A stretch of 64,000 nucleotides of DNA from an uncultured bacterium (GTDB lineage Bacteria > Planctomycetota > Phycisphaerae > SM23-33 > FEN-1343): positions 936 through 64,935 of the forward strand of contig CBDVCA010000002.1 in the NCBI GenBank assembly GCA_965372365.1, read 5' to 3'. Made by a program: the position numbers and the translations under genes. Shown here piece after piece: positions 5,699 to 63,985 of the stretch (the first letter of the stretch is position 1; every line of letters begins with the position of its first letter). The notes under the pieces are model-generated. The model searched no databases. It saw only the letters and a list, made by a program, of their open reading frames with translations, and was not told the origin of the DNA.

Positions 5699-5761
5699 GA
5701 TCGCATCTCCCCGATTGTGGCCTTCCCCGTATTTCCTCGGCCGATCGGCATAATAGAGCAT

Positions 5762-52400: not shown

Positions 52401-52784
52401 GGCCGCCAGCCGGTCGCCGGCCTTGGCGTCGGCGGACAGTTGCAGCGTATTGATCAACCCGTTGTCCAGCCCGCCAATCCTCTCCTCGGCGAACCGGGCG
52501 TTCTGCGCGTCGTTCTGCCGCCACAGCATCGCCCGCACCGGCCCGGCCGCCGTCGTCGCCGTCGCAATCGCAATCGTCGCCGCCAGCAGCACCCACCGCA
52601 GCACCTCGGGCGGCTGGCCCGGCCAGTACCCCGCCGCCAGCGTTATCGTCACCACCATCGCCGCGGCCATCGTCAGCATCGCACACGCCGCCGTCGCCAT
52701 CGCCACCCGCCGCCGGCGCACCCACAGCCGGCGCAGTTCGGCGCCGATTACAGCCGCCGGTCGGTATGTGGGCATGGTTGTCAT
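49485..52784 (-). CDS. Large (~1,100 aa) membrane-anchored hypothetical protein with two N-terminal TM helices, a large beta-rich extracytoplasmic region and a Glu-rich, coiled-coil-like C-terminal region
   Basis: TM1 is MATAACAMLTMAAAMVVTITLAAGYW and TM2 is LAWLAAASMVIALALCLTQW. The ORF continues upstream to 53312, but that 176-aa extension is Arg/His/Pro-rich junk overlapping the MFS gene. ATG at 52784 (MTTMPTYRP) is the preferred start. Confidence 0.55.
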   Translation of the reverse strand: MTTMPTYRPAAVIGAELRRLWVRRRRVAMATAACAMLTMAAAMVVTITLAAGYWPGQPPEVLRWVLLAATIAIATATTAAGPVRAMLWRQNDAQNARFAEERIGGLDNGLINTLQLSADAKAGDRLAAAAIRETAAKVRKLDLTRAAGTEHLRRLAWLAAASMVIALALCLTQWPRVTRAMTAVFRPGAYVPTVGAVEVLSVTPGDVTVYSGSRVAVTVTIANDEQIDYAGQIVCTDAANPTGRARSMMIATDRRTYSLPLGTPTDDLRYFVRIGDTRIPSGRPGYLITVIDQPGVAGLDATYRYPDYIGRDAERNTDIAGPIRAPAGTKVALTIRLHHRAAGAILRRKNAPPAPMVAADDGRTFTADMSILADGGYGIRLTDDGGRVIQRLPDGDDSDGWFAITALADAAPVVAFRRPTANVIVAPGGSVDVTLHARDDYGLTAATLSVSDADGSRRSRHEFPLAAIPTEAALTHSIDIPADTPVGTVLTCTATATDNRRLGDLGPQTAAAANGFEILVQNPQTLEAAKAERFAELHSLIEALLRTQLRTKLAAIGARDRGSAKAAFDGYASAATEGQIGIRTQTARILAEFPFTAPMAPARDALAMMRTNEMTQACNQAAVVATVADLTARGRPCDLLIGTQDRIIEGLQMLLAYLPMMARDPADRLDTAGGEDLAPEYAERLRELAADLTQLAGEHARVIPAAERLAKKPVDQFSPDDERLLHELRAIEDKWESFLTDAFTDFSKLTQQDFSNPSLLTELLSVRADVTMAKDALAARAVEIAVATEAMTSAGENAEELTANIEKWLPDAPDRQQWNMEDPGGIDNVELPELPSELEDLIGDLLEQEEDLFAEMQDVTSQAADSLDEGAGWLAMDGPISSMNAQGVTGNMLPNSSEISGRSGEGRQGKSTGEFVQDTFVGKGGRRTSTRLTPEPFSTGQIKDESTTPPGGATGGGKIGGAAGEGLEGPVPPPLQRELERLAGRQAHLINNAERMRERFAASDYSGFAFQRAVTLMNRVGGDLARNDYRSALRRRDTVLEALRDSRDALAGPVEVIRDASGPVPKHIRHDIDQARQRPLPQRYRKILQSYLQKLAGGR

Positions 52785-52888
52785 GTTTGGCTCTCGACGC
52801 GACCAATGAGTATACCGTCGATTATACACCGTCCACACGTATCGACTAACGTGTTCCGACCCCAAACAGTGCAGAGGATGCGACCCGA

Positions 52889-54028
52889 CTACCGGGTCGC
52901 ATCGCTCAGGGCCAGCCGCTTCCTTCCTATCCAGAGCAGCACCAGCCCCGCCAGAGGCGCCGCGGCGTAGATGAGGTACATGCGCCGATAGCCGGTGTGG
53001 GTGACGAGCAGGCCTCCGCCGGCGGCGCCGATCGTTTGGGCGAGGCCCACGACGATGGAGATGTAGATGGTCATGGCCAGTCCTTGGCGGGCGCGGGGAA
53101 CCTTGCGGCGGATGAAGTCGATCGCGGCGGTGTGGCTCATGCCGAACGTGAACGCGTGCAGGCATTGGGCGGCTACGATGGCCGCCAGCGGGAGGGCGGT
53201 CGCGTAGAGGCTCAGGCGGATGGCGACGGCGAGCAGGGAACAGGTGAGCATGCCGACGACGCCGAGGCGGCGCAGGAAGAATCCGGCGCAGAAGAGCATG
53301 GGCACTTCGCATAGGGCGCCGACCGACCAGATGACTCCAGGGCTGGCGACGTCGTAGGCCTCGGTGAGGAATAGGGAGAAGAACGCGTAATGGGAGGCCA
53401 TGCCGAGTTGGCAGAGGAAGATCACGGCCATCAACAGCCAGAACGATCGGTCGAAATCGCCGTAGCCGCTGACGGCGCGGTGGTGAGCGGCCTTATGACT
53501 GTCGGGCAGGGCCGGCATGAACGGCAGGGCGATTGCCGTCGTGACGGCGAAGCAGGCCAGGATCGATGTGGATGAGTTCTTGTCGATGAGGCCGAAGCCC
53601 CAGATGACCAACAGCATAACAATGAAGCCCAGCGATCCCATCGCCCGCACCCGGCCGTACTGGCGGGCCGGGTCGTCCAACTCGCTGGCCGCGAGGGCGT
53701 CGGCGAGGGGGATGGTCGATCGGTAGGCGACGCCGAACAGGACCGTCAGTGGGGCGACGAGCCAGAAATGGCTCAGCCAGTTCATGGGCGCCAGTGCAGC
53801 CAGGGATACGAGCATGCAGACCCACAGCAGCATGCGTCGTTTGCCGAGCCGGTCGGCCAAGTGGCCCACCGCCACGGACCCCAAAGCTCCCGCCAGACCG
53901 AACACGCCTTGCAGCAGCCCGACGTCGGTAGTGTTGAACCCGCGAGCGGCGAGGAAGACCTGGAAGTACGGGGTGATGACCCCGAAGGTGACGAAGAAGA
54001 AGAAATAGTACAGGGCGAACCGGGTCAC
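52889..54028 (-). CDS. MFS-family transporter (about 380 aa, 12 TM-like)
   Basis: Hydrophobic 12-helix pattern. Loop motif GHLADRLGKRRML between TM2 and TM3 resembles the MFS signature G-x-L-a-D-r-x-G-r-r. The ORF extends to 54367, but that N-terminal 113 aa is Arg-rich junk. GTG 54028 overlaps the TGA stop of the upstream gene (GTGA). Confidence 0.7.
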   Translation of the reverse strand: MTRFALYYFFFFVTFGVITPYFQVFLAARGFNTTDVGLLQGVFGLAGALGSVAVGHLADRLGKRRMLLWVCMLVSLAALAPMNWLSHFWLVAPLTVLFGVAYRSTIPLADALAASELDDPARQYGRVRAMGSLGFIVMLLVIWGFGLIDKNSSTSILACFAVTTAIALPFMPALPDSHKAAHHRAVSGYGDFDRSFWLLMAVIFLCQLGMASHYAFFSLFLTEAYDVASPGVIWSVGALCEVPMLFCAGFFLRRLGVVGMLTCSLLAVAIRLSLYATALPLAAIVAAQCLHAFTFGMSHTAAIDFIRRKVPRARQGLAMTIYISIVVGLAQTIGAAGGGLLVTHTGYRRMYLIYAAAPLAGLVLLWIGRKRLALSDATR

Positions 54029-55611
54029 TGGCCGGCCTCGGATCGACCGGCCTGGCGGGGCGTCTTGCGATGAAAAGCGCTGGTCGGGCACAGATCGGCG
54101 TAGGCGGGGCCGTCCTCGCCGAGGGCGTCGGCGATGGGCCCTTCGTAGGGGCCGCTGACGCGTGCGGCGAACCCGCGTCCGACGTAGGTGAGAGCGTCCG
54201 GGCCGTCTGAGGATTCGGACTTTGCGACGCAGGCGCCGCAGAGGATGCACTTGTGGGGCTCGTAGGCTACCAGCGGGTGCGAGGCGTCCCGGTCGAGATG
54301 TCGGCGCTCGCCGACGTAATGGCTGCGGCTGGCGTCCAAGTCGGTGGCCAATCGTCGCAGCTTGCACAGGTCGTTATCGCGGCAGCCGCAGATGAGGCAG
54401 CGGCCGGCTTGGGCGACGGCCGACGTGTCGTCATCGACCGGCCCGGGCTCGGGTGCGTTGTGGGTCGGGCGCGACCAGAGCACATCCTGCTCGTCGTCGT
54501 CCAAGGACCCGTAACGGAGGGCGATGGGTTTTTGGGGCGTGATATCGCTTTCCCCGTTGATGTAGCGATGGATCGATTCGGCCGCGGCCAGTCCGTCGGC
54601 GACGACGCGGACCGCCAGGCCCTTTCGCCCGGCGCACGCTCCGGCGGCGAAGATGCCCGGTACAGTCGTGGCGTGCGTGGCGCGGTCGATGGTGATGACG
54701 CCGTCGGTCCAAACGATCCCCGCGGCCGTCAGGCCGTCGAGGTCGGCCTCGGCTCCGACGGTCAGCAGCAGGGCGTCATGGGTTGCGGCCAACTCGGTGA
54801 TCGATCCTTCATCCCTGATCGGCACGTTATATGCGAAGGCGACGCCCGCGGCTTCGACGGCGGCGATGTCGGCGGCTAAGACGTTAGGGGGTAATTCCGA
54901 TGCGTCGAGGGCTCGCAAAGATCCCCCTGACGCCTCGGCGGCTTCGTGGACGGTGACGGCGTATCCCAGATTCGCCAGTTTGTAAGCGGCCGCGAGGCCG
55001 GCGGGACCGGAGCCGATAATGGCGATGCGGCCGGAAGGTTCTTTGGCCCCTTCGCCGCTGACGGGGGCGGACGGGGCGATGACGCCTTCGGCGCCGGCGG
55101 CGTAGCGGTGCAGGTCGCGGATCGCCACGGTCTGGTCGCGGTCGTTGCGGCGGCAGGCTTTCTGGCAGGGGGCGGTGCAGATGCAGCCCAAAACGCCGGG
55201 GAGTACGAGCCCGGCCCGGGCGATCGCGGCGGCGGCCGGGAGGTCGCCCTGCTGAAGGGCTTCCATGAAGCCGGGGACATTCCACGTGGCCGGGCAGGCC
55301 AGTTCGCAGGGGGCCAGGCATTCGCCGAGGTGATCGGACAGCAGCAATTCCAACGCCGATTTGCGGGCCGCCTTCACTTCCTCCGAATCGGTCACCACCT
55401 CCATGCCCTCATGCACCGGCATGGCGCAGGAGGGTACGAACTTCTTGTGCCCGGCGATATGCACCGCACAGACGAAGCACGACTCCAGCGGCTTCATCCC
55501 CGGCGCGTAGCAAAGCGTGGGGATGTTGATTCCCAACTTCTCAGCCGCGGCCAGAATCGTGGTCCCGGCGGGAACCTCGACCTCTCGTTTGTCGATCGTC
55601 AGTTTGGGCAT
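54025..55611 (-). CDS. Iron-sulfur flavoprotein: N-terminal NuoG-type [2Fe-2S] ferredoxin domain fused to a GltD-like (glutamate synthase small-subunit family) FAD/NAD(P)-binding oxidoreductase, with extra C-terminal Cys clusters
   Basis: MPKLTIDKREVEVPAGTTILAAAEKLGINIPTLCYAP ... CFVCAV resembles the NuoG N-terminus. CLAPCELACPATWNVPGFM resembles the GltD Fe-S motif. RIAIIGSGPAGLAAAYKLANLGYAVTVHE is a dinucleotide-binding fold. CLICGCRDNDLCK and HKCILCGACV are C-terminal clusters. Confidence 0.75.
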   Translation of the reverse strand: MPKLTIDKREVEVPAGTTILAAAEKLGINIPTLCYAPGMKPLESCFVCAVHIAGHKKFVPSCAMPVHEGMEVVTDSEEVKAARKSALELLLSDHLGECLAPCELACPATWNVPGFMEALQQGDLPAAAAIARAGLVLPGVLGCICTAPCQKACRRNDRDQTVAIRDLHRYAAGAEGVIAPSAPVSGEGAKEPSGRIAIIGSGPAGLAAAYKLANLGYAVTVHEAAEASGGSLRALDASELPPNVLAADIAAVEAAGVAFAYNVPIRDEGSITELAATHDALLLTVGAEADLDGLTAAGIVWTDGVITIDRATHATTVPGIFAAGACAGRKGLAVRVVADGLAAAESIHRYINGESDITPQKPIALRYGSLDDDEQDVLWSRPTHNAPEPGPVDDDTSAVAQAGRCLICGCRDNDLCKLRRLATDLDASRSHYVGERRHLDRDASHPLVAYEPHKCILCGACVAKSESSDGPDALTYVGRGFAARVSGPYEGPIADALGEDGPAYADLCPTSAFHRKTPRQAGRSEAGQ

Positions 55612-55649
55612 CAGTCACCGTGCTCGATCATCATAGGCCGTTCGTTTTT

Positions 55650-55675
55650 CAATCCGCAATCCGCAATCCGCAATC
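55650..55675. repeat. Heptanucleotide tandem repeat (CAATCCG)x3.7 in the 67-bp spacer between the NuoF-like and GltD-like genes
   Basis: The run caatccgcaatccgcaatccgcaatc is read directly from the sequence. It begins 3 nt past the NuoF-like stop codon. Confidence 0.85.
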
Positions 55676-55678
55676 AAG

Positions 55679-57505
55679 TCATTCCCACCGTATGGCGTCG
55701 ACCGGACAGACCGGCACGCACATGTGGCATCGGGTGCATTTGTTCATATCGATCATGTGCTTCTCATAGGGCGTCTCGGCGATCGCATCGGCCGGGCACG
55801 CTTTCGCACAGCGTGTGCAGCCGATGCAATCGTCGGTGACGCTGTAGTGGATCAGCGCCTCGCACTTGCCGGCGGGGCAGCGGCCGGCGATGTGGGCCTC
55901 GTATTCCTGGCGGAAGTACTTCAGCGTCGTCAGCACCGGATTGGGCGCGGTTTGCCCGAGGCCGCACAGGCTGGTGGTGCGGATTTGCAGCGCGAGCCGT
56001 TCCAGGGTGTCGAGGTCGGCGGTCTCGCCTTGGCCGTTGCACAAGCGGTTGAGAATCTCCAGCATTCGCTTGGTGCCGATCCGGCAGAAGGTGCATTTGC
56101 CGCAGGATTCGTTCTGCGTGAACTGGAGGAAATAGCGGGCGATGTCGACCATGCAGTCGGAATCGTCGAGTACGACAAGGCCCCCCGAGCCCATCATGGC
56201 GCCGATGCCGATCAGGGCCTCGTAATCGACGGCGGTGTCGGCGTGCTCGGCGGGGATGCATCCGCCGGAGGGTCCGCCGATTTGCACGGCCTTGAACTGG
56301 CGACCGTTCTTGATGCCGCCGCCGAGGCCCATGACGATCTGGCGGATGGTCATGCCCATGGGGATTTCGATGAGTCCGCCGCGAGCGACTTTTCCGGCCA
56401 GGGCGAAGACCTTGGTGCCGGGGCTCGACTCGGTGCCGAGTTTGACGTACTTGTCGGCCCCATGGCGGATAATCCACGGCACGGCCGCGTAGGTTTCGAC
56501 GTTCGAGACCAATGTAGGCTTGCCCCACAGCCCGCTCTCTGCCGGATACGGCGGTCGCAGCCGCGGGGTTCCTCGCTTGCCTTCGACCGACGCGATGAGT
56601 GCGGTTTCTTCGCCGCAGACGAAGGCGCCTGCCCCCTGTTTGATCTGCACATCGAGGTCGAAACCGCTGTCGAAAACATTATCGCCAAGCACGCCGGCGG
56701 CTTTCGCCTGGTCGATGGCTTCGCTGATGTGCTGGACGGCCAGGGGGTATTCCTGGCGAATGTACAGGAACGCCTGGTGAGCGCCCACGGCCCGGGCGGC
56801 GATCGCGATGCCTTCGAGAATGCGGTGGGGGTAGGCCTCCAGCAGCATGCGGTCCATGAAGGCTCCGGGGTCGCCCTCGTCGCCGTTGCAGATGAGGTAC
56901 TTCACGTCCTCGGCTTGCCGCGATACGAGGTCCCACTTGAGCCCCGTGGAGAAGCCCGCTCCCCCGCGGCCGCGAAGGCCGGAATCGTGAACCTGCTGGA
57001 TCAGTTGCTCCGGCGTCAACTCGCCGACGGCTTTGGCCAGGGCCTCGTAGCCGCCGCGTTGGCGGTACTCGTCGATGCTGGTCGGGTCCATCCGCCCGTA
57101 GTCGGCGGTGGCGATGTGGACCTGCGGGTCGAGAAAGTCGCCGGCCGCCTGGCTTGCCGGGTCGATGCGGTATTGTTCGGCGTCTTCCCACGCTTCGTCG
57201 CGTGTGAGCTTTCGCCACACCGAGCGCACGGCCGCGGCGGGGCTGGTCTGCGGTACGTGCCGGCCGAGGATGGCGCTGACGGCCCCGGGGGTGACGTTGC
57301 CGTACAGGGTCGTGGCGCCGTCGGGGTCGGTTACTTCCAGCAGCGGCACCCTGTGGCACATGCCGACGCACCCGCCTTCGCGAACGTCGACGGCGTTGCC
57401 GAGCCGCTTCACTTCGTCCATCAGCGCCCGGTAGACGTCGGCGCTGCCGGAGGCTTGGCAGCAGGAGCCCAGGCCGATGCGGATTTCGGTGGTCCCGGCG
57501 GTCAT
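55679..57505 (-). CDS. NuoF-like NAD(P)H-binding FMN flavoprotein (HoxF/HndC-type) with N-terminal thioredoxin-like [2Fe-2S] domain and C-terminal 2x[4Fe-4S] ferredoxin domain
   Basis: GSCCQASGSA...CVGMCH is a [2Fe-2S] motif. GRGGAGFSTGLKW and ICNGDEGDPGAF are NAD/FMN-site motifs. ESCGKCTFCR is the NuoF [4Fe-4S]. C-terminal CIGCTRCAKACP and CTRCHMCVPVCP. A strong SD (GAGGAGGAGG) lies 5 nt upstream. ATG 57505 overlaps the TGA stop of the upstream gene (ATGA). Confidence 0.85.
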   Translation of the reverse strand: MTAGTTEIRIGLGSCCQASGSADVYRALMDEVKRLGNAVDVREGGCVGMCHRVPLLEVTDPDGATTLYGNVTPGAVSAILGRHVPQTSPAAAVRSVWRKLTRDEAWEDAEQYRIDPASQAAGDFLDPQVHIATADYGRMDPTSIDEYRQRGGYEALAKAVGELTPEQLIQQVHDSGLRGRGGAGFSTGLKWDLVSRQAEDVKYLICNGDEGDPGAFMDRMLLEAYPHRILEGIAIAARAVGAHQAFLYIRQEYPLAVQHISEAIDQAKAAGVLGDNVFDSGFDLDVQIKQGAGAFVCGEETALIASVEGKRGTPRLRPPYPAESGLWGKPTLVSNVETYAAVPWIIRHGADKYVKLGTESSPGTKVFALAGKVARGGLIEIPMGMTIRQIVMGLGGGIKNGRQFKAVQIGGPSGGCIPAEHADTAVDYEALIGIGAMMGSGGLVVLDDSDCMVDIARYFLQFTQNESCGKCTFCRIGTKRMLEILNRLCNGQGETADLDTLERLALQIRTTSLCGLGQTAPNPVLTTLKYFRQEYEAHIAGRCPAGKCEALIHYSVTDDCIGCTRCAKACPADAIAETPYEKHMIDMNKCTRCHMCVPVCPVDAIRWE

Positions 57506-59199
57506 GACGCCTCCTCCTCACCGACGGTCGCGGCGGAGTTGGCGTCGTCCAGCGGTCCGATCATCGGCGACGCGGCGGCCGCGTCGACCTTGCCTTCGGC
57601 GACGTTTGTGATAGCCTTTCGGGCGGTTTCGCCGGAGAGATGCCCGTAGGTAACCCCGTCAATCTGCATGCACGGGGCGAGGGAGCAGCAGCCGAGGCAG
57701 GCGACCGATTCGACGGTGAACTTGCGATCGGCGTCGGTGTCGGCGTCGCCTTCGAGGCCCAATTGCAGGCGAATCGCCTCGGTGATCCGCGGCGCCCCGG
57801 CCACGTGGCAGGCGGTGCCGTGGCAGACGCACACCAGATGCTCGCCGATGGGAGCCAAGCGGAACTGGTTGTAGAACGTGCTGATGCCCAGCAGTCGAGC
57901 CATCGGCAGACCGGTCAGCTCGCACACCTTCTCCAACGCCGGCCGCGGCAGGTAGCGGTGCTTGGTTTGGATCTGCTGCAACAAGGGCAACGCGGCCTGC
58001 AGGTCGGTTCCGAAATGATCGACCAACGTGGCGACATACGATACGTCGATCTCTTCGTCTTCGCCGACGATCCGCTTGACCGCGACCGACCCTCGCATGG
58101 CGGGGGCGGGCTCCATCGTTTCGACCGGGGGGGGGATGTACGTGGGTTCGGCCGGAGGCAGGCCGAGCCGCTCCAGCTCCAACGGGCAACTCTTGTAGCA
58201 TCGCGCACACGCCAAGCACGAATGGCTCTGGGATGCGTGCTCTTCGATCGCCCCGAACGGGCAGGCGTCGTTACACAGTTCGCAGTCGCAGCACTCCTCG
58301 GGCATCACCGTGACGGTTCGCTTGGCGACTCGCGAGCAGGCGCCGAGGATGGCGCCGTAGGGGCAAATCCACCGGCAGTAGGGCCGGCCGACGAACATGG
58401 CGACCGCCAGCAGTCCGCCGGTGACGATCCACATCCACCCGACCCCGGTCACCTCGAACACGCCGGCGAAGTCGCCGGCGAGAGCCGCCCGAAGGTTGAT
58501 GGCCCGGAACAGACCCACGAACGGGTCGAATCGGCAGATGATGAAGTCCGGATCGACGGCCAGGTTCCACCGGCCGAACAGCACCACACCCACGCCCCCG
58601 ACGGAGAAGTAGATCGCCATCGCGAGGTAGCCCCATCGCAGATACCGCAGGGGCTTGTCGATCCACAACGGAACCTGAATCTTGACCCGCAGCAATAGAT
58701 CTTGCACCACGCCGAACGGGCAAACGCCTCCGCAGAAGACGCGGCCGACCAGCAGCGCCGCCAAGATCGGCAGCAGGAAGATCAGCGTGACGACGATCGA
58801 GATCGTGTAGCTCGGGTCGGCCAGCGAGAGGGCGACGTTCTGGATCGACCCGATCGGGCAGACGCACCCGCTGCGGTAGAAGCCAAGGTACAGCAGGCTC
58901 GCGGCCATCAGGGCGATGAGCCACCTGCGGCTGCGTTTAGCCAGGATGATCCACGCCGCCATCGCCAACGCCGCGGCGTACGCGACGACGTCGACCACTC
59001 GCATGGCCTGGGAGCGGGGCTCGGGGTAGGTCGGCGTCGGCTTGGTTCCGACCTCGGCCTCACTGGGCGCCGGCTGGGCGTACCCGACTTCGCCTGCGGG
59101 GGCGAGTAGGAATGCATCGCCGCCGGTGTCGTCATCCCGGGCCGCGGCCAGGGTCGCCAAACAGAGGATCGCCACGCCGGTCAGCCCTGTCGCGAGCAT
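57502..59199 (-). CDS. Fusion protein: NapH/MauN-like integral-membrane polyferredoxin (N-terminal ~400 aa) + NuoE/HoxE-like thioredoxin-fold [2Fe-2S] ferredoxin (C-terminal ~170 aa)
   Basis: Membrane part has the NapH hallmark intramembrane motifs CVCPIGS and CGGVCPFG, plus two cytoplasmic 4Fe-4S motifs (CCDCELCNDACP and CLACARCYKSCP). C-terminal CVCHGTACHVAG ... CLGCCSLAPCM is the NuoE [2Fe-2S] signature. The ORF extends to 59436 but overlaps the upstream gene by 220 nt. ATG 59199 (MLATGLTGVAILCL) is the preferred start. Confidence 0.7.
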   Translation of the reverse strand: MLATGLTGVAILCLATLAAARDDDTGGDAFLLAPAGEVGYAQPAPSEAEVGTKPTPTYPEPRSQAMRVVDVVAYAAALAMAAWIILAKRSRRWLIALMAASLLYLGFYRSGCVCPIGSIQNVALSLADPSYTISIVVTLIFLLPILAALLVGRVFCGGVCPFGVVQDLLLRVKIQVPLWIDKPLRYLRWGYLAMAIYFSVGGVGVVLFGRWNLAVDPDFIICRFDPFVGLFRAINLRAALAGDFAGVFEVTGVGWMWIVTGGLLAVAMFVGRPYCRWICPYGAILGACSRVAKRTVTVMPEECCDCELCNDACPFGAIEEHASQSHSCLACARCYKSCPLELERLGLPPAEPTYIPPPVETMEPAPAMRGSVAVKRIVGEDEEIDVSYVATLVDHFGTDLQAALPLLQQIQTKHRYLPRPALEKVCELTGLPMARLLGISTFYNQFRLAPIGEHLVCVCHGTACHVAGAPRITEAIRLQLGLEGDADTDADRKFTVESVACLGCCSLAPCMQIDGVTYGHLSGETARKAITNVAEGKVDAAAASPMIGPLDDANSAATVGEEEAS

Positions 59200-59216
59200 C
59201 GCCGAGCGGAGGCGGT

Positions 59217-59927
59217 TCACGACTGGCCCCCTCCGTTGGCGGGCTTGCCCGGGGGTGGTGTGTAGCCGGGACGTTTGGATCGGACCGAGCCTCGATAGTA
59301 GGCTTTGGGGGGGCAACTGGGGGCGATGGCGCACTGGTTGCAGTCGAGGCACAGGTTGTGCCGCACTTGGAGGCGAAGCGAGGCGTTGCCCATCGGCGGT
59401 TTGCACGCCTCGACGCACAGGCCGCAGCCGTTGCACTTGGCTTCGTCGATGGTGTACTCGAAGAAGTTGTTGTACGGGTCGCCGAGGTCGACTTCACCTA
59501 CGACGCGTCGGGCGATGGCGTCCTGGGGGCAGACTAACTTGCTATGCGTGCCCTCGCGGCTTGTGCCGTCGGGGTAGGGGCCGAGGGTCTCGGCTTCCTC
59601 GTACGAATACACGTCGCTGTTGACGTCGAAATAGGCCGGGCAGATGAAGCAGTATCCGCAGACGTTGAAATCGTTGACGACCTTCACGGCCGAGTTGGGC
59701 AAGACGCATTCGGTCGCGCAGCGGCCCCAGCCCTGATCGTTCCGGTAGCTCTTGCACGTCGTGCAGGTGTTCGGGTCCAGTTGCCACACCTTGTCGGCGT
59801 CGGCCCGTACGGTGAGCCCGGCCGCGACCGATCCGGCGGCCACGATGCCGGCTCCGCGAGCGCAGTTCTTCAAGAAGTCGCGTCGCGTTGGTTTCTTAGG
59901 GTCACTCATCGCTATCTCCGCTCTCAA
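59217..59927 (-). CDS. Tat-exported poly-[4Fe-4S] ferredoxin, NapG/MauM-like
   Basis: Canonical twin-arginine motif TRRDFLKNCARGAGIVAAGSVAAG. Cys clusters CGYCFICP, CNGCGLCVEACKP and CLDCNQCAIAPSCPP. Confidence 0.75.
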   Translation of the reverse strand: MRAEIAMSDPKKPTRRDFLKNCARGAGIVAAGSVAAGLTVRADADKVWQLDPNTCTTCKSYRNDQGWGRCATECVLPNSAVKVVNDFNVCGYCFICPAYFDVNSDVYSYEEAETLGPYPDGTSREGTHSKLVCPQDAIARRVVGEVDLGDPYNNFFEYTIDEAKCNGCGLCVEACKPPMGNASLRLQVRHNLCLDCNQCAIAPSCPPKAYYRGSVRSKRPGYTPPPGKPANGGGQS

Positions 59928-60003: not shown

Positions 60004-60987
60004 TCAATGGGTCGGTTTGAACAGTCGCACGCGGCCGCCGGCGGTGTCGGCGACGTAGATGCGGCCGCCGGCGTCGACGGCTACGTCCATCTGCGTATTC
60101 TCCGGGCTGAAATGCGACGGGTCGATGACGGCCAGCAGCGAGCCGTCGGCGTCAAAAACCTTCACGCAGGCCGGGGCCTTTTGAGCGGCGACCACGACGC
60201 CGTCGTCGGCGATGGCGAGGTTGATGGGGTTGCAGCAGCCGGGGAACAGGGCCCGGTCGGTCGCGCCGTATCCGCCGAACGATGCGATCCGGGCGCCGTG
60301 GCGATCGTACGTTTCGATTGTGTGTGGGCCGGAGTGGGTGACCAGGACCCGCCCGGCGCCGTCGAGGGCGACGTCGAGGGAGTTGTTCGGCAGGCGGAAG
60401 CGTCTGGTGGGGGGGGTGTCGGGGACGATGTCGCCGATGTGGACGCCGCCAGTGTCGAAGACCCGCACGACCCCGGCGTCGGCGTCGGCGACCAGCACGC
60501 CGTTGGCGTCGGCGGCCAAGCCGGTTACACGCCCCAGCACCCCGTCGCCGATCACGCCGGACGATTCGCCTTCGGAGGTGTACTTGTCGACTCGCCCGGT
60601 GTGACCCACGTAGACATTGCCGCCGGCGTCAACGGCGATCGCCGTCGGGGCCTCGGGCAGATCCCACCCGCCCACGCGTGCGGCGCAATGATCGAAGACG
60701 ACCACCCGCCGGTCGCCCGCGGCGTACAGCCTGTTATCCGCCCCGACCGCTACGCCGACTGCACGCTCTCGGAAGAGGCGATCCCCGCCAATGACGCCCG
60801 CCGGTGCGTACCTTCGGGGCAGGCCGGTCGCCATGGCTGACGGCGCGGGGGGTTTCTGAGCCGGAGGGTTGACCGTATCGACCGGCCGGGTACGCCTGAC
60901 GGCCGCCCAAATCGAAAGGACGACGATCAGCGTTGTCATCGCCGCAGTAACCATTGTAGTGTGCCGCGTGCGGCTGGTATTTCCCAT
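60004..60987 (-). CDS. NHL-repeat beta-propeller protein with N-terminal signal-anchor
   Basis: Repeated ~40-aa units with (V/I)AxDxxGxxYVxD-type motifs (AVDAGGNVYVGHTGRV, ADANGVLVADADAGVVRVFD, VALDGAGRVLVTH, VAVDAGGRIYVADTAGGRVRLF). Hydrophobic N-terminus MVTAAMTTLIVVLSIWAAV. Confidence 0.7.
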   Translation of the reverse strand: MGNTSRTRHTTMVTAAMTTLIVVLSIWAAVRRTRPVDTVNPPAQKPPAPSAMATGLPRRYAPAGVIGGDRLFRERAVGVAVGADNRLYAAGDRRVVVFDHCAARVGGWDLPEAPTAIAVDAGGNVYVGHTGRVDKYTSEGESSGVIGDGVLGRVTGLAADANGVLVADADAGVVRVFDTGGVHIGDIVPDTPPTRRFRLPNNSLDVALDGAGRVLVTHSGPHTIETYDRHGARIASFGGYGATDRALFPGCCNPINLAIADDGVVVAAQKAPACVKVFDADGSLLAVIDPSHFSPENTQMDVAVDAGGRIYVADTAGGRVRLFKPTH

Positions 60988-61015: not shown

Positions 61016-62509
61016 TTATTGAGGCGCCGCCACCTCGATGCAGACCATCTTGCCCATATCCCGCAGGATGAGCTTGCCGCCGGCGTAGGCCATCGGCGCC
61101 CAGACGTCGTGGCCGCTCAGGACGGCCGCGGCCGCCTTCTGCCTATATCCCCCGGTGTCGGCGGCGATCATCCGCAGCGTTCCGGAGTCGCCGTCGAGGG
61201 CGAAGAGGGTTTCGTCGCCGATGAGCATCCAGTTACCCAGCCCGAAGGTTGCGTCGGGATGCCGCCACGCGACCTCGCCGTCGAGGCCCAGGCAGGCGAA
61301 TTGGCCCTTCTTGCTCGCGGCGTGATCGACGCCGAAGAGATGATTCCGGTACAGTACGGGCGTGTGGCAGTCGAAGTTGAACTGCTCGGGCGTCAGCGTG
61401 TAGGCTGTCTCGGCGGTGAAGACCCCGGCGTCGTCGGCGCTGACGGTGAGCATGACCGATCCGGCCTTGTAGCCGGCCGACATGAAGATCCGGCCGTCGT
61501 CGATCACGATCGGCGAAGGCGCCACGGCGGTATTGGCTCGCCACGGGGAGACCGTCACGTTGGGCCTGTCGGCGGCGTAGGCTTTGATCTTGGCCGCGGA
61601 GGCTTCGCTGTTGGGGGTCCAGAGAACTTCCCACAGCAGTGTCCCGTCGGCGGCGTCGACGCCGACCATGCCTTGCAGCGTACACCAGACGTATTGACGT
61701 TTGCCGCCGATGACGCCGGGCATCACCGACGAATGGCTCAGTTTGTGCTTGGCCTCGTTGGGCGTGGTCCAAACCACTTCACCCGTCGCCAGGTCGAACG
61801 CGGCCATCAGAGCCTTGCGACCGCCGACGCCCACGATGATGCGGCCTTCGTCGAGCAAGGGGCATTGGCCGTTGTACCACGGGGGGTTGCGGGCGCCGTA
61901 CTCGGCGGTGATGTTCCTCGCCCACACCCGCTCGCCGGTGGCGGCGTTGAACCCGTGCAGCGTGGCCTTGGGGTCGAAGCTGACGACATGGGTTCCGTCG
62001 GTGGCCGGGACCGTTCGGGTGATCGCGTGGTTGGGGCGGATCGGTCGGCGGTACGACCATCGCCAGATCTCGGCGCCGTCGGCGAGCGAGACGCATCGCA
62101 TCATCCAGTGCTGTTGGGTGCGATCGTAATCGTTGAAGAACACGCGCCCGCCTTCGATAACGGCGCCGCTATAGCCCATGCAGAGGTCGTCGAGCGTCCA
62201 CAGCACCTTCGGCCCTTCGGCGGGCCAGGTGTCGTACAGGCCGGTCGCGTCGGTCGCCGGGACGATTCCATCGCGATGGGCGCCCCGGAACTGCGGCCAA
62301 CTGCCCGTGTCGGTCGAAGGCTCCCCTTCGCCCGGCGTGAGGACGCCGACGTCGAGACGGGTCACGTCGACCTTCTTGGCCGGCGCCCGGGTCGCGGCCG
62401 GTTGGGCGGCCGGTTGAGCGGGGGGCGGGTCTTTGGATTCGTCCCCGCCGCCGCAGCCGGTCAGCAGGAGGGTTGTCGCCAGGACGGCGGCCGGCAGTGC
62501 GTTCTTCAT
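61016..62509 (-). CDS. Lipoprotein with PQQ-like (BamB/YVTN-type) beta-propeller repeats
   Basis: Signal peptide plus lipobox MKNALPAAVLATTLLLTGC. SWPQFRGAHRDG motif typical of PQQ-like propeller proteins. Repeated W-containing beta-propeller blades (AEIWRW, ERVWAR, EVVWTT, TLLWEV, EVAWRH). Confidence 0.75.
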   Translation of the reverse strand: MKNALPAAVLATTLLLTGCGGGDESKDPPPAQPAAQPAATRAPAKKVDVTRLDVGVLTPGEGEPSTDTGSWPQFRGAHRDGIVPATDATGLYDTWPAEGPKVLWTLDDLCMGYSGAVIEGGRVFFNDYDRTQQHWMMRCVSLADGAEIWRWSYRRPIRPNHAITRTVPATDGTHVVSFDPKATLHGFNAATGERVWARNITAEYGARNPPWYNGQCPLLDEGRIIVGVGGRKALMAAFDLATGEVVWTTPNEAKHKLSHSSVMPGVIGGKRQYVWCTLQGMVGVDAADGTLLWEVLWTPNSEASAAKIKAYAADRPNVTVSPWRANTAVAPSPIVIDDGRIFMSAGYKAGSVMLTVSADDAGVFTAETAYTLTPEQFNFDCHTPVLYRNHLFGVDHAASKKGQFACLGLDGEVAWRHPDATFGLGNWMLIGDETLFALDGDSGTLRMIAADTGGYRQKAAAAVLSGHDVWAPMAYAGGKLILRDMGKMVCIEVAAPQ

Positions 62510-62545: not shown

Positions 62546-63985
62546 TCAGGTGAGTATCAGTTCAACCAGGAACCCGCACAGATCGGCCAGTGCGGGTGGG
62601 TTCATGTGCTCGGCCCCGGCGGCGGCCCGGGCCTTCAGTCGGCCGACGAGGCTGTTGGCGGTCTTGAACACGCCGAGGCTGTCGAGCAGGGCGGTAAGGT
62701 CGTCGAGCGCCCGGGGCGACTGGGCCGCGGCGGCCAGCAGTGCGTTCAGTTGCTCCCGTTGGGTCGGGGAGGCCGTTTCGGCGGCCAGCGCGGTCAGGTA
62801 CGTTGGCCTCGCGGCGCGGGCGTCGTCGGCCCAGCCGGATAGGTCATTGAGCACCTGGAAGCCCACGCCGATGTGCCGGGCGAAGACGTCCAACCCCCGG
62901 TCGTCGGGGATTTGTCCGCCCCCCAGAAGCACCCCCGAAGCGAGAGCCGCGGCGAAGGCCGGGGCGGTCTTGAGGGCGTACACCTTCAGCACCTGCTGCG
63001 ACGGCGGGGCCGGCGCCCCGTCGCGTCGCCAGAGCAATTCGGCGCCTTGGCCCTGGGCGAGGTGTACGTGGGCCCGGCTCATGTGTTCGGCGACGCCGGC
63101 TCCGACGCCGTCGGGCAGTTCGCCGGCGGCCGTCGCGATCAGCCGATATCCGAGCCCGAGCAGGTAATCGCCGACGTTGATGGCCATGGCCTGCCCGTGG
63201 GCGCGGTGCAGCGTGGGGCGGCCGTATCGCTGATCGTCATCGTCTTCGATATCGTCGTGGGCCAGCGAGGCTTTGTGGAACGCTTCGATAGCGACGGCTA
63301 CTCGGGCGGCGCCGTCGCCGAGGGTTTCGGGGGGCGCGTCGCTGACAGCCGCGGCCGCGGCCAGGGCGATGAACGGTCGGAGCCGCTTGCCGTCGCCGGC
63401 GAGCCATCGGCGGGCGATTTCGCTGGTGGCGTCCAGGGCCTCACCGTGGGCGTTGGGTTCGGCGGGGGCGAGCAGGGCGTCGAGTCGCGGCGGTTCGAAG
63501 ACCGCCCCGGTCACTTGCAGCAACCCCAGCCACGAGCCTTTGGGCCGCGGCGCGGAGGGGTCGTGGGTTTCGACGTATTCGGCCAGCCACGACAGATCGG
63601 CGGAGGTGTCGTGGCAATTGCTGTTGAGCAGCGGCACGGCGACGGCCGGCACGCCGAGGCGCCAGATCTTGTCGAAGACCGCTTCGAGGCTGTCCAGGCA
63701 AGCGACGCCGACGACCGCCTCGATCGACCCGGAGGCCAGCGTCTTGACGACGATGGGGGTGCCGTCGGCGATGAGCGTGCGATACCCCAACTGCTCGGCT
63801 CGGCGGCGGATCGCGCCGATATCGCCGGGCCGATCGTCCTGGCCGCCGACGTGCTCCAGGCACCGGGGCAGCAGCAGCAGTCGACGCTCGTAGGGGACGC
63901 CGGTCAATGGATCGGCCCACCAGGCGTTGGCGGCCAGGACCATGGCGAAGCCGAGGTAATCATCGGGTAAGGCCAGTCGAGTCAA
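62546..63985 (-). CDS. trans-Polyprenyl diphosphate synthase-family protein with ~180-aa N-terminal Cys-containing extension (DUF116-like)
   Basis: First Asp-rich motif LAHDDIEDDDDQRYGRPTLH (DDxxD...RRG-type). Degenerate second motif GFQVLNDLSGWADD. The N-terminal region LLLPRCLEHV...AVVGVACLDSLEAVF...PLLNSNCHDT resembles DUF116. This is recollection and is unverified. The start lies within 15 nt of the window edge. Confidence 0.65.
   Translation of the reverse strand: MTRLALPDDYLGFAMVLAANAWWADPLTGVPYERRLLLLPRCLEHVGGQDDRPGDIGAIRRRAEQLGYRTLIADGTPIVVKTLASGSIEAVVGVACLDSLEAVFDKIWRLGVPAVAVPLLNSNCHDTSADLSWLAEYVETHDPSAPRPKGSWLGLLQVTGAVFEPPRLDALLAPAEPNAHGEALDATSEIARRWLAGDGKRLRPFIALAAAAAVSDAPPETLGDGAARVAVAIEAFHKASLAHDDIEDDDDQRYGRPTLHRAHGQAMAINVGDYLLGLGYRLIATAAGELPDGVGAGVAEHMSRAHVHLAQGQGAELLWRRDGAPAPPSQQVLKVYALKTAPAFAAALASGVLLGGGQIPDDRGLDVFARHIGVGFQVLNDLSGWADDARAARPTYLTALAAETASPTQREQLNALLAAAAQSPRALDDLTALLDSLGVFKTANSLVGRLKARAAAGAEHMNPPALADLCGFLVELILT

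Follow-up and report, generated by a model that had tools for sequence, protein, structure and literature searches.

A conserved seven-function operon in its Phycisphaerae form: an apparent link from cytoplasmic NAD(P)H to periplasmic beta-propeller proteins

The minus-strand gene cluster described here, found in a 64,000-nucleotide stretch of DNA that was analysed as a whole (the window), reads as the form that a conserved operon of seven functions takes in Phycisphaerae, the operon encoding one membrane-spanning electron-transfer machine, an interpretation to which we give a probability of slightly over one half (roughly 0.55). The apparent task of the operon is to transfer electrons between NAD(P)H in the cytoplasm and a pair of beta-propeller proteins in the periplasm. 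An earlier, sequence-only reading proposed that NAD(P)H of the cytoplasm is connected, by way of NapH-like Fe-S centres, to a ferredoxin in the periplasm; in general terms this agrees with the evidence, and the topology is coherent. That reading regarded the terminal partner as unknown; this is not simply so, as two genes for extracytoplasmic propellers lie directly upstream, within the conserved unit. No description of this operon or system was found in the literature or databases searched.

Gene content and order, fusions, domain identities and closest solved relatives were established directly, and the features are collected in Table 1. The coordinates and strand of the five genes first described (A to D and the MFS gene) were confirmed, as were the domain assignments and the NapH-like::NuoE fusion, with Pfam placing both Fer4_5 and PF01257 in B. 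The start of A had been set at TTG 59927, which is the mechanical start of the open reading frame; the gene begins at ATG 59909. Translational coupling was borne out by overlaps of GTGA at A/B and D/MFS and of ATGA at B/C, and C and D are separated by 67 nt.

Table 1. Features of the minus-strand cluster and its upstream genes (positions in the window).
Feature	Coordinates	Strand	Evidence
MFS transporter	52889..54028	minus	MFS_1_like, E 8e-57
D: shortened BfuA/NfnA-like Fe-S subunit	54025..55611	minus	Fer2_4, Fer4_20, Pyr_redox_2
C: NuoF/BfuB-type FMN + NAD(H) subunit	55679..57505	minus	Complex1_51K, SLBB, NADH_4Fe-4S
B: NapH-like::NuoE fusion, 572 aa	57502..59220	minus	Fer4_5 PF12801 + PF01257
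B, C-terminal NuoE/BfuC-type thioredoxin-like [2Fe-2S] domain	57583..58059	minus	PF01257
B, N-terminal NapH-like part	58171..59220	minus	Fer4_5 (PF12801)
A: Tat four-cluster ferredoxin, NapG-like layout	59217..59909	minus	twin-arginine motif RRDFLK, Cys groups, Fer4_7/Fer4
NHL-repeat six-bladed beta-propeller, N-terminal membrane anchor	60004..60987	minus	Pfam NHL
PQQ_2-type (BamB-like) eight-bladed beta-propeller lipoprotein	61016..62509	minus	PF13360, E 7e-20
DUF116::polyprenyl diphosphate synthase	62546..63985	minus	PF01976 + PF00348

The unit recurs widely. We sampled 80 distinct loci out of at least 591 species genomes, the hosts of these loci being mostly Acidobacteriota and Planctomycetota, and in at least 57 of them the genes for the PQQ_2, NHL, NapG-like, NapH-like, NuoE, NuoF and GltD-like proteins follow one another in this order on one strand; almost all of the incomplete loci are interrupted by contig ends. 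Three independent fusions tie the parts together, namely NapH::NuoE, NuoE::NuoF (14 loci) and PQQ_2::NHL (10 protein clusters, from genomes other than this one). NuoE is mostly free-standing and at times joined to NuoF, and in unfused loci the napH-like and nuoE-like genes overlap by 4 nt. The NapH::NuoE fusion is confined to a Phycisphaerae subgroup, where it is no assembly artefact, since the Fer4_5 plus PF01257 architecture occurs in about 21 clusters (90% identity) drawn from independent NCBI, JGI, ENA and Logan assemblies; all taxon-named members of these clusters are Planctomycetota/Phycisphaerae. The fusion argues that the cytoplasmic and membrane parts act as one machine.

It is highly improbable that two unrelated systems merely lie side by side, or that what we see is part of an ordinary Nap, hydrogenase or formate dehydrogenase operon with its catalytic gene beyond the window. 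The window does end 15 bases past the polyprenyl synthase gene, and a catalytic subunit beyond that edge had been suggested as a check. A contig of 95-97% identity, L086, carries ferredoxin-like, B12-radical-SAM, squalene-hopene-cyclase-like, DUF116 and polyprenyl synthase genes upstream, with no molybdopterin or hydrogenase subunit and no classical catalytic subunit among them. The reported absence of NapA, Nrf, hydrogenase and formate dehydrogenase genes likewise held, both for the window ORFs scanned and for the 80 related loci, and those loci contain no further conserved neighbour of any kind. Together with the covalent fusion and the 4-nt overlaps, which bind the two halves to each other, these results largely refute both forms of the idea.

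Two flanking genes have a narrower distribution. Among the loci compared, an MFS gene follows D only in the window, L006 and L009, and this transporter, which among NCBIfam models comes closest to that of the 3-phenylpropionate transporter HcaT (135 bits; 259 required), is a lineage-specific addition. The DUF116::polyprenyl synthase gene lies 36 nt upstream of the PQQ_2 gene, and the same neighbourhood, with squalene-hopene-cyclase-like and B12-radical-SAM genes, occurs in L002, L006 and L086. DUF116/polyprenyl synthase genes are not adjacent to the operon in Acidobacteriota loci; the link of the DUF116 gene is limited to Phycisphaerae/Planctomycetota, and its relevance is uncertain. A few polyprenyl-synthase-like matches were seen several kilobases downstream of the operon in Acidobacteriota loci.

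Judged by sequence, the NuoE/NuoF/GltD trio is an NfnABC/Stn-type module of the Bfu family, because all three parts are best matched by 9n5u, 9bov/9bp5 and 8oh5 and not by complex I; complex I NuoF proteins align to the core of C only. The C-terminal domain of B proved NuoE-like, as had been proposed (PF01257, E 4e-39, residues 399-539), with NfnC 9n5u_C (E 2e-39), 9bov_C and StnA 8oh5_A as its best PDB matches, at 40-43% identity and with the Cys ligands aligned. C matches NfnB of C. saccharolyticus over its full length (9bov_B, 729 bits), followed by 9n5u_B, 8oh5_B and HydB proteins. It has the BfuB-specific N-terminal domain, which gives a weak thioredoxin-like 2Fe-2S match in Pfam, and a C-terminal 2x[4Fe-4S] domain with two 4Fe-4S motifs. 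Across the trio, both the FMN/NADH core and the C1-cluster Cys ligands are retained. The GltD-like subunit D is closest to 9bov_A, 9n5u_A and 8oh5_C; NfnC/StnA, NfnB/StnB and NfnA/StnC are thus the best relatives of the NuoE-like, NuoF-like and GltD-like subunits, respectively.

D comprises a [2Fe-2S] domain, a GltD-type Cys-rich domain that by homology would bind two [4Fe-4S] clusters, what is left of an FAD-type Rossmann domain and, C-terminally, two Cys clusters. Its residues 3-288 align to 9bov_A 5-288 and its residues 274-518 to 9bov_A 422-676, with no counterpart of 9bov_A residues 289-421, such that it is without the NADPH-binding subdomain as well as the FDH-like C-terminal half. Its flavin motif reads GIFAAGAC in place of GVFAGGDAV, with the GD lost. 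L006 and L009 share the deletion, and nearly all other loci retain VVVVGGGNTAMD. Of the former description of D as a GltD-like flavoprotein, the GltD-like domains stand, but the NAD(P)H-binding Rossmann subdomain is missing. Without the NADPH subdomain and the GD motif, the "NAD(P)H" input of the window reduces to the NuoF site, and NfnABC-type bifurcation cannot run there as such.

Several features set the operon apart from the characterised NfnABC and StnABC enzymes. These come from thermophilic or acetogenic anaerobes, proved soluble on purification and work with free ferredoxin, whereas the operon's hosts are mostly Acidobacteriota and Planctomycetota and its BfuC-like subunit is fused to, or encoded beside, a membrane polyferredoxin. 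Its BfuA-like subunit lacks the FDH-like C-terminal half everywhere (~700 versus 963-1178 aa), and that of the window also lacks the NADPH subdomain. The Bfu identity alters the expected energetics, since the NuoE side is the low-potential ferredoxin branch. In NfnABC, ferredoxin docks between the NfnC C-terminal domain and the NfnB ubiquitin-like domain and is reduced by B3/B4 (PMC12018979, PMC11829005). BfuABC-type modules on membrane complexes have been predicted as Nuo-Bfu and Mbh-Bfu (Schut et al. 2022), these being complex-I-like or Mbh-like and proton-translocating, with quinone or H+ as third substrate (PMC9304861); here, by contrast, the membrane partner is a NapH-like polyferredoxin leading to periplasmic proteins. 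Acidobacteria are nowhere in the text of that survey, which leaves 17 BfuB clades without assignment (PMC9304861). The operon also recalls Rnf conceptually, where a NuoF-related NADH subunit (RnfC) and a polyferredoxin (RnfB) are joined through membrane subunits. C and B weakly match the NCBIfam RnfC and RnfB models through shared domains, all scores lying far under cut-off, but RnfA/D/E/G homologues and flavinylated subunits are absent from the operon.

The exported ferredoxin A has 15-16 conserved Cys in four groups, 15 of them kept in at least 96% of 81 orthologues, and probably carries four [4Fe-4S] clusters. In B, Fer4_5 matches two stretches (E 6e-19) and there are two CX2CX2CX3CP motifs. 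Its N-terminal part consists of a signal helix, a conserved periplasmic PTPT[HY]PEPR peptide, a region of five TM helices in which two CX3CP motifs lie on the cytoplasmic side, and then a cytoplasmic 2x[4Fe-4S] ferredoxin domain; family alignments show its invariant Cys. The positive-inside rule and the AF2 helices predict that the C-terminal Fe-S domain of B, and hence NuoE, is cytoplasmic. AF2 pLDDT is about 90 for residues 70-300 and below 50 for the disordered, Pro-rich linker between the NapH-like and NuoE parts (residues ~352-387), and domain orientations are not confident (pTM 0.61-0.64). No solved structure among PDB entries matched the membrane domain.

As in NapGH, NosGH and MauMN, adjacent and coupled genes encode a Tat ferredoxin with four Cys groups and, as its partner, a membrane polyferredoxin that has a 2x[4Fe-4S] domain in the cytoplasm as well as two CX3CP motifs. 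The NapG/NapH identity given earlier to A and B therefore survives at the level of the superfamily but not of the family: B scores 41.7 bits against NapH/MauN TIGR02163 (cut-off 213), and the NCBIfam NapG model does not match A. Unlike NapGH, the B family has a cleavable signal helix, the extra N-terminal periplasmic peptide, five TM helices and further invariant Cys, namely C119, C121 and C229, whose predicted location is periplasmic. The operon is also without a NapA, NosZ or MADH partner, and the Bfu module would replace or supplement quinol.

A compact NAD(P)H:quinone oxidoreductase that pumps no protons, which the earlier reading had allowed for, is conceivable, if distinctly improbable; the NapH-like domain would then reduce or oxidise quinone, and the NapG-like ferredoxin would form a side branch. 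NapGH and NosGH are commonly viewed as quinol dehydrogenases (cited in PMC8238504), and the membrane domain of B belongs to PF12801. Furthermore, L002 and L045 have a NapG/NapH-like pair and a propeller with no Bfu module, so that another donor, for example quinol, must serve there. Yet action on quinone leaves unexplained both the Tat ferredoxin with two exported propellers, conserved in nearly every locus, and the choice of NuoE as the fusion partner of NapH; in NfnABC, ferredoxin docks beside the mobile domain of the NuoE-like subunit (PMC12018979). B also falls under the family cut-off, and the tools applied here identified no quinone site.

The propellers look like enzymes, both having export signals and invariant residues grouped before the innermost strands, and they are candidates for the two periplasmic catalytic subunits. 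The PQQ_2 gene is immediately upstream of the NHL gene in nearly all related loci. Its lipoprotein product has the signal ...LLTGC, and homologues across phyla share 45-65% identity; H161, H185, H259 and C490 are among the invariant residues, H382 and C406 are kept in more than 90% of sequences, and many invariant positions lie just ahead of the innermost strands of successive blades in the AF2 model. The NHL protein has an invariant F-x-G-C-C-N-P motif (C251, C252); GCCNP is missing from generic NHL proteins, but hardly any family member down to E~1e-15 is without it. D168, K270 and K276 are invariant in operon-linked copies, with H222 in 99% and N201 in 97%. A fused PQQ_2/NHL homologue was modelled with an AF2 pLDDT of 92.7. 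Fold and profile searches returned generic relatives only (BamB, tetrathionate hydrolase, PQQ alcohol dehydrogenases, TRIM NHL domains), so no substrate or cofactor can be named.

Beta-propellers are also contained in NirS and ExaA. Both are known partners of extracytosolic NapH-like systems, and PF12801 NapH-like proteins, with NosR, PceC and others among the systems, are seen as modular transmembrane electron conduits to extracytosolic oxidoreductases (Meheust et al. 2021; PMC8238504), a likeness that extends to the operon. Those systems, however, use an outside ApbE-flavinylated FMN-binding domain (PMC8238504), whereas the operon relies on a Tat ferredoxin, FMN_bind and ApbE genes being absent from it. 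The same survey reported no NuoEF/Bfu donor for NapH-like systems, and the 31 clusters in which it found NuoF-like genes all involve MsrQ-like proteins (PMC8238504).

Electrons may instead flow inward, which we hold unlikely but worth weighing: the propellers would form a periplasmic dehydrogenase, oxidising an aldose or a donor of similarly low potential by, for example, a PQQ-like or metal-dependent reaction, with a lactonase-like NHL partner, and electrons would enter the Bfu ferredoxin branch through the NapG-like and NapH-like proteins to be combined with NADH in reducing NADP+ (the Nfn direction) or, in the window, simply to reduce NAD+. Bfu enzymes are reversible, NfnABC included, and the physiological NfnABC reaction is written Fd_red + NADH + 2 NADP+ -> 2 NADPH (PMC11829005). 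The PQQ_2 protein weakly matches PQQ alcohol dehydrogenases by profile, NapH-like proteins adjoin the PQQ alcohol dehydrogenase ExaA (PMC8238504), many NHL proteins of the family carry the label 'sugar lactone lactonase YvrE' or SGL from the source pipelines, and a sugar/phenylpropionate symporter-type MFS gene is coupled in the window lineage. Against this, the PQQ-ADH NCBIfam model gives 29 bits for a cut-off of 480, the NHL protein of the window matches SGL with a score under the Pfam cut-off, and no conserved neighbour in the 80 loci points to a substrate. PQQ-type couples have potentials too positive for NAD(P)+ reduction. The Cys-Cys motif that defines the family is, to our knowledge, no feature of lactonases.

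In the outward-flowing machine that we favour, physical assembly, replacement of ferredoxin by NapH, the direction of flow and the periplasmic chemistry are what we infer. In the Bfu-family module, NAD(H) would bind to the NuoF-like subunit, at its FMN, and in most lineages the BfuA-like subunit would also bind NADP(H), at its GltD-like domain. The NuoE/BfuC-like subunit would sit on the low-potential branch; in the window it is joined covalently to the NapH-like polyferredoxin, at the cytoplasmic 2x[4Fe-4S] domain, and this polyferredoxin may stand in for ferredoxin. Electrons would cross the membrane through the NapH-like protein to the Tat-exported four-cluster ferredoxin. From there they would reach the two-propeller enzyme, in which the PQQ_2-type lipoprotein would be combined with the NHL protein and its vicinal Cys pair, and which may reduce a periplasmic substrate, possibly by thiol/disulfide or metal chemistry.

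Relatives without one propeller (L006 has no NHL gene and L009 no PQQ_2 gene) or without the Bfu module (L002, L045) suggest that the parts can function in other combinations. In the window lineage, given the deletion in D, NADH at the NuoF site would be the sole recognisable cytoplasmic substrate, with an MFS transporter added. The cluster represents, for one lineage, a seven-gene operon that is widespread and unnamed, and the NapH::NuoE fusion is a lineage-specific variant of this operon and not its defining feature.

The operon lies on the minus strand as a run of ORFs within a region of roughly 0.65-0.70 G+C. A sequence-only reading had described a cluster of five genes here, encoding a Tat ferredoxin (A), a NapH-like protein fused to a NuoE domain (B), a NuoF-like subunit (C), a [2Fe-2S]/GltD-like protein (D) and an MFS transporter. 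This cluster is borne out by the ORFs, by Pfam and by the sequence itself, as are the start/stop overlaps GTGA between A and B, ATGA between B and C and GTGA between D and the MFS gene. Two β-propeller genes upstream of A, one of NHL and one of PQQ_2 type, were overlooked and enlarge the conserved unit. A scan for promoters and terminators returned nothing exceeding chance level.

Features of the operon and its surroundings (positions in the window unless another locus is named)
Feature	Position	Strand	Content
SNF2-family helicase with DUF3670	123-2837	-	Pfam-scanned ORF
UbiA-family prenyltransferase	3051-4244	+	Pfam-scanned ORF
GT87 glycosyltransferase	4241-5761	-	Pfam-scanned ORF
Giant ORF	5829-47126	-	13,765 aa (41.3 kb)
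Long ORF downstream of MFS	49485-53312	-	up to 1,275 aa; predicted TM segment
MFS gene	52889-54028	-	MFS_1_like (Pfam)
D	54025-55611	-	Fer2_4, Fer4_20, Pyr_redox_2 (Pfam)
C	55679-57505	-	Complex1_51K, SLBB, NADH_4Fe-4S, Fer4_21, C-terminal dicluster domain; weak N-terminal thioredoxin-like 2Fe-2S match (2Fe-2S_thioredx) (Pfam)
B	57502-59220	-	572 aa; Fer4_5 (PF12801) in two stretches, E 6e-19, then two 4Fe-4S motifs
B, C-terminal part	residues 399-539	-	2Fe-2S_thioredx/NuoE (PF01257), E 4e-39 (Pfam)
A	59217-59909	-	ferredoxin, Tat-type N-terminus, RRDFLK (Pfam and sequence)
NHL propeller	60004-60987	-	
PQQ_2-type propeller	61016-62509	-	lipoprotein signal LLTGC; with NHL, one of two genes directly upstream of A
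DUF116 fused to polyprenyl synthase	62546-63985	-	just upstream of the operon
DUF116/polyprenyl synthase region	L086 651-6677		
DUF116/polyprenyl synthase region	L002 1436-7447		

Scanning one genome per species with an alignment (A1) of the NapH-like domain revealed relatives in at least 591 species-level genomes. The 80 best loci, in which six-frame ORFs were searched with the window proteins, belong mostly to Acidobacteriota (Bryobacterales, Solibacteraceae and Vicinamibacterales) and Planctomycetota, and include single MAGs of Verrucomicrobiia and, by label, Acidimicrobiia. The order PQQ_2, NHL, NapG-like, NapH-like, NuoE, NuoF, Fer2_4/GltD recurs on B-homologue contigs of a Phycisphaerae MAG and of Acidobacteriota, and 57 of the 80 distinct loci carry all seven functions in that one order on one strand; nearly all incomplete loci among the 80 end at contig boundaries. 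The operon is widespread, and its NapH::NuoE form belongs to a Phycisphaerae subgroup. Source names of family members are generic, including '4Fe-4S binding protein', 'NAD(P)H-dependent oxidoreductase subunit E', 'BamB' and 'sugar lactone lactonase YvrE'. The NHL family numbers 85 representatives at E<=1e-30, a rough size only, the search having been dominated by giant multi-NHL proteins.

No further gene family constantly adjoins the operon in the 80 loci. The sole recurring neighbours, in about 25 loci, are extra PQQ_2 paralogues, which might draw, as alternative partners, on the same electron supply; they number one to three per locus and lie on either strand (e.g. L013, L072, L079). Locus L006 is without the NHL gene and L009 without the PQQ_2 gene, and in L002 and L045 one or more propellers accompany the NapG/NapH-like pair with the electron-bifurcating (Bfu) module absent within 10 kb. 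Genes for NapA, Nrf, hydrogenase or formate dehydrogenase had been reported missing from the window, and this holds: none occurs in the scanned window ORFs or in the contigs of the related loci. A related locus, L086, shares 95-97% identity with the window across the operon genes and reaches past its right edge; together with the 80 loci it leads us to reject a Nap, Nrf, hydrogenase or formate dehydrogenase operon whose catalytic gene falls outside the window.

Upstream of PQQ_2, L086 carries a ferredoxin-like gene followed by genes of B12-binding radical-SAM, squalene-hopene-cyclase-like, DUF116 and polyprenyl synthase type. L002 has a similar upstream set, L006 has a DUF116/polyprenyl synthase gene upstream, and in close relatives the ferredoxin-like gene of this set encodes 255 aa. 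Judged by its gene content the set looks like an isoprenoid lipid cluster, adjoining the operon only in Phycisphaerae/Planctomycetota. Isoprenoid genes do not adjoin the operon in the Acidobacteriota loci, where a few polyprenyl-synthase-like matches lie several kilobases downstream, and the link may therefore be local synteny. On the other flank, the long ORF directly downstream of the MFS gene has no Pfam match; it overlaps that gene, so that its real start probably lies further in. The giant ORF takes up some two thirds of the window; FG-GAP and PKD repeats occur in its C-terminal 1,200 aa, and its N-terminal stretch and one middle stretch are without Pfam match. The three genes beyond it are unrelated to the operon.

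The cytoplasmic part of the operon resembles the Bfu family of electron-bifurcating enzymes. In sequence searches C, D and the NuoE domain of B share their best PDB relatives, namely NfnABC of Thermococcus sibiricus (9n5u), NfnABC of Caldicellulosiruptor saccharolyticus (9bov/9bp5) and StnABC of Sporomusa ovata (8oh5). C aligns end to end (residues 7-606) with NfnB (9bov_B, 729 bits), and also with 9n5u_B and HydB proteins, and possesses the BfuB features of a NuoF-like FMN/NAD(H) core bearing the B1 [4Fe-4S], an N-terminal domain and a C-terminal 2x[4Fe-4S] (B3/B4) domain. Residues 388-546 of B best match NfnC, StnA and HydC (E 2e-39, 40-43% identity), NuoE-like subunits of BfuC type whose C1 [2Fe-2S] sits in a C-terminal thioredoxin-like domain, and with these the Cys motifs CHGTAC and CLGCC align; here, however, the BfuC-type subunit is not free but fused to the NapH-like protein. 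The NADH module of respiratory complex I (NuoEFG) is not matched: C falls short of the NuoF equivalog models (499 against a cut-off of 559, and 395 against 749), complex I NuoF aligns only to residues ~125-545 of C, leaving the Bfu-type terminal extensions, and nuo genes other than the NuoE and NuoF types are absent from the cluster.

In the Bfu-family enzymes NfnABC and StnABC the A subunit has a GltD-like FAD domain that oxidises NADPH, and a B1-FMN-C1 'flavobicluster' splits the electrons between NAD+ and ferredoxin (PMC11829005). The NADP(H)-binding feature of BfuA was not found in the window D. The alignment of this 528-aa protein to NfnA falls into two blocks, and residues 289-421 of 9bov_A, the NADPH-binding Rossmann subdomain, are missing between them; D also reads GIFAAGAC where relatives have GVFAGGDAV. 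Its earlier description as a [2Fe-2S]-GltD-like flavoprotein stands for the [2Fe-2S] and Cys clusters, which are kept, but without the NADPH subdomain and the GD motif D is best called an Fe-S subunit with a remnant flavin domain. Aligning the D orthologues of all loci revealed the same deletion in L006 and L009 and a smaller one in L067; AGAC stands in place of the flavin GD motif in the window, L006 and L009. L006 and L009 are also the sole other loci with an MFS gene after D, the loss of the subdomain in all three coinciding with a translationally coupled downstream MFS gene. Nearly all other D orthologues, of ~690-730 aa, keep VVVVGGGNTAMD and GGDAV, and all are without the formate-dehydrogenase-like C-terminal half of NfnA/StnC. 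Judged from sequence, the window lineage has a single recognisable nucleotide substrate, NADH, bound at the NuoF site; NfnABC-type bifurcation would be possible in the ancestral form, and not as such in the window.

The assignment of A and B to NapGH holds at the level of architecture. Fer4_5 matches B twice, FCGGVCP, YCRWICP and two CX2CX2CX3CP motifs are invariant, and A displays a conserved twin-arginine motif, RRDFLK, with 15-16 conserved Cys in four groups. At family level it is not supported: B attains 41.7 bits against a cut-off of 213 for TIGR02163 (NapH/MauN) and 38 bits against 234 for NF007013, its C-terminal third alone matching, and the NapG model gives no match with A. B further differs from NapGH in its extra signal helix and five TM helices. 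No association with NapAB, NosZ or mau genes was found in the window, L086 or the 80 loci.

The NapH-like family is strongly conserved (~50% identity across phyla), and no solved structure matching the membrane domain of B emerged from a PDB search. The AF2 model of B is confident over residues 70-300 (pLDDT ~90), and its helices, read with the positive-inside rule, predict a signal helix, a periplasmic PTPT[HY]PEPR peptide and five TM helices, the two CX3CP motifs and the dicluster domain facing the cytoplasm. The family also has three (nearly) invariant Cys in its NapH-like part (58171-59220 in the window), C119, C121 and C229, within the motifs GCxCP and ICxxDPF. They are predicted to face the periplasm and might make up an outer site, holding a metal or a cluster, that takes part in moving electrons through the membrane.

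How the two halves may connect is suggested by T. sibiricus NfnABC, in which the [2Fe-2S] domain of NfnC swings between the FMN and the B3/B4 clusters, and ferredoxin sits between this domain and the ubiquitin-like domain of NfnB (PMC12018979). The NuoE-like part of B is thus the counterpart of the subunit whose moving domain flanks this site. It is joined by a disordered Pro-rich linker (AF2) to the NapH-like protein, which has its own 2x[4Fe-4S] ferredoxin-like domain, and by this analogy we infer that the NapH-like protein takes the place of the soluble ferredoxin.

The NapH-like::NuoE fusion proposed by the sequence-only reading is real, PF12801 and PF01257 both being present in B, and the same architecture occurs in ~21 protein clusters from independent assemblies; those bearing a taxon name are all Planctomycetota/Phycisphaerae. 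NuoE is free-standing in 59 loci, fused to NuoF in 14, and fused to the NapH-like protein in four besides the window and the near-identical L086. The NapH::NuoE loci are the nearest kin of the window NapH-like domain (56-66% identity), consistent with the fusion having arisen once, in one Phycisphaerae subgroup. Indeed, the napH-like and nuoE-like genes of unfused loci overlap by 4 nt, so that loss of a stop codon would suffice. Additionally, PQQ_2 is fused to NHL in 10 protein clusters of 708-819 aa (P0259, P0261, P0272, P0288, P0294, P0295, P0308, P0315, P0329 and P0357), most with a signal-peptide-like N-terminus and with an NHL part of GCCNP type; in the AF2 model of P0295 both domains are confident and their relative orientation uncertain (pTM 0.64). 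Neighbouring parts are thus linked by three kinds of fusion, one within the periplasmic pair, one across the membrane/cytoplasm junction and one between NuoE and NuoF. These fusions and the synteny contradict the view that two unrelated systems happen to adjoin here, or that the genes are a piece of some classical operon, and we consider it highly improbable. The window fusion is best seen as evidence joining the two halves and not as the defining feature of the system.

Both propellers carry Sec-type export signals, from which metals, PQQ or protein-derived centres would be the only plausible cofactors. PQQ_2 is 45-65% identical across phyla, with invariant residues including H161, H185 and H259, and H382 in >90% of sequences; NHL is defined by an invariant F-x-G-C-C-N-P, a motif that generic NHL proteins lack. 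In the AF2 model of a fused homologue (pLDDT 92.7), many conserved residues come immediately ahead of the innermost strand in one blade after another, and further ones are assigned to loops of the same face. So placed, from secondary structure and not coordinates, they would surround the central axis, as in propeller enzyme active sites. As leads only, the vicinal Cys pair points to chemistry of the thiol/disulfide kind and the His-lined pocket to a metal site.

Relatives of the propellers in fold and profile are generic (BamB, tetrathionate hydrolase, PQQ alcohol dehydrogenases and TRIM NHL domains), and PDB profile searches with the PQQ_2 and NHL alignments return BamB, tetrathionate hydrolase, PQQ-ADH and designed propellers at repeat level. 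A PQQ-dependent dehydrogenase is not supported: the alcohol/methanol dehydrogenase model TIGR03075 yields 29 bits against a cut-off of 480, and the PDB matches to such enzymes are at repeat level (E 1e-7 to 1e-5), weaker than BamB. The lactonase-type clade III N2O reductase (NosZ) is rejected: Pfam finds PQQ_2 or NHL only, with no cupredoxin/CuA domain, and the conserved His are too few, three to four in PQQ_2 and one in NHL, where CuZ needs about seven.

Taken together, our findings favor a single machine, to which we assign a probability of about 0.55. In it, the Bfu-type NAD(P)H module would hand electrons to the NapH-like polyferredoxin, from which they would cross the membrane to the Tat ferredoxin and then the propeller pair, the latter reducing some periplasmic substrate. 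Flow in the inward direction, with the propellers oxidising a periplasmic donor and feeding the ferredoxin branch of the Bfu module, seems to us unlikely. Less likely again is the NAD(P)H:quinone oxidoreductase considered in the sequence-only reading, which leaves the conserved periplasmic genes unexplained, though such an activity may exist on the side. It is tempting to extend the single machine into a membrane-anchored class of bifurcating Bfu enzymes, in which the NapH-like polyferredoxin replaces soluble ferredoxin, oxidation of NADPH with NAD+ as high-potential acceptor drives low-potential electrons across the membrane to a two-propeller enzyme, and the window lineage is a simplified, NADH-only derivative; this extension is tentative. 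If it is true, a two-propeller enzyme of the periplasm, not recognised before, would use these electrons for a reduction otherwise out of reach, in a system common in Acidobacteriota and Planctomycetota, abundant phyla of soil and sediment.

Flavin-based bifurcating Bfu enzymes are known from anaerobes, as cytoplasmic proteins working with soluble ferredoxin. By sequence, the parts of the present system are of known kinds, the Bfu family and NapH-like conduits, and we classify the putative whole as a NapH-coupled Bfu complex with a two-propeller periplasmic partner. A survey of the Bfu family predicted the membrane-bound forms Nuo-Bfu and Mbh-Bfu, left 17 BfuB clades unassigned and never mentions Acidobacteria (PMC9304861). 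A survey of NapH-like proteins describes flavinylated systems, with NuoF-like genes beside MsrQ-like proteins only (PMC8238504). No description of the operon was found in the literature searched on NapH-like, NuoE/NuoF, Bfu and β-propeller subjects.

For the long-standing question of how, and from which donors, NapH-type proteins carry electrons through the membrane, the operon offers a compact genetic system, the window having seven genes, two of them fused, on one strand and several overlapping. Dominant soil phyla account for many of the species-level genomes, at least 591, in which it occurs. In it three fusion types join a Bfu module with a NapH-like conduit, a ferredoxin of the periplasm and a pair of exported propellers. 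If our reading is true, it would constitute a new route by which NAD(P)H-derived, possibly low-potential, electrons reach the periplasm, together with a new type of periplasmic enzyme.
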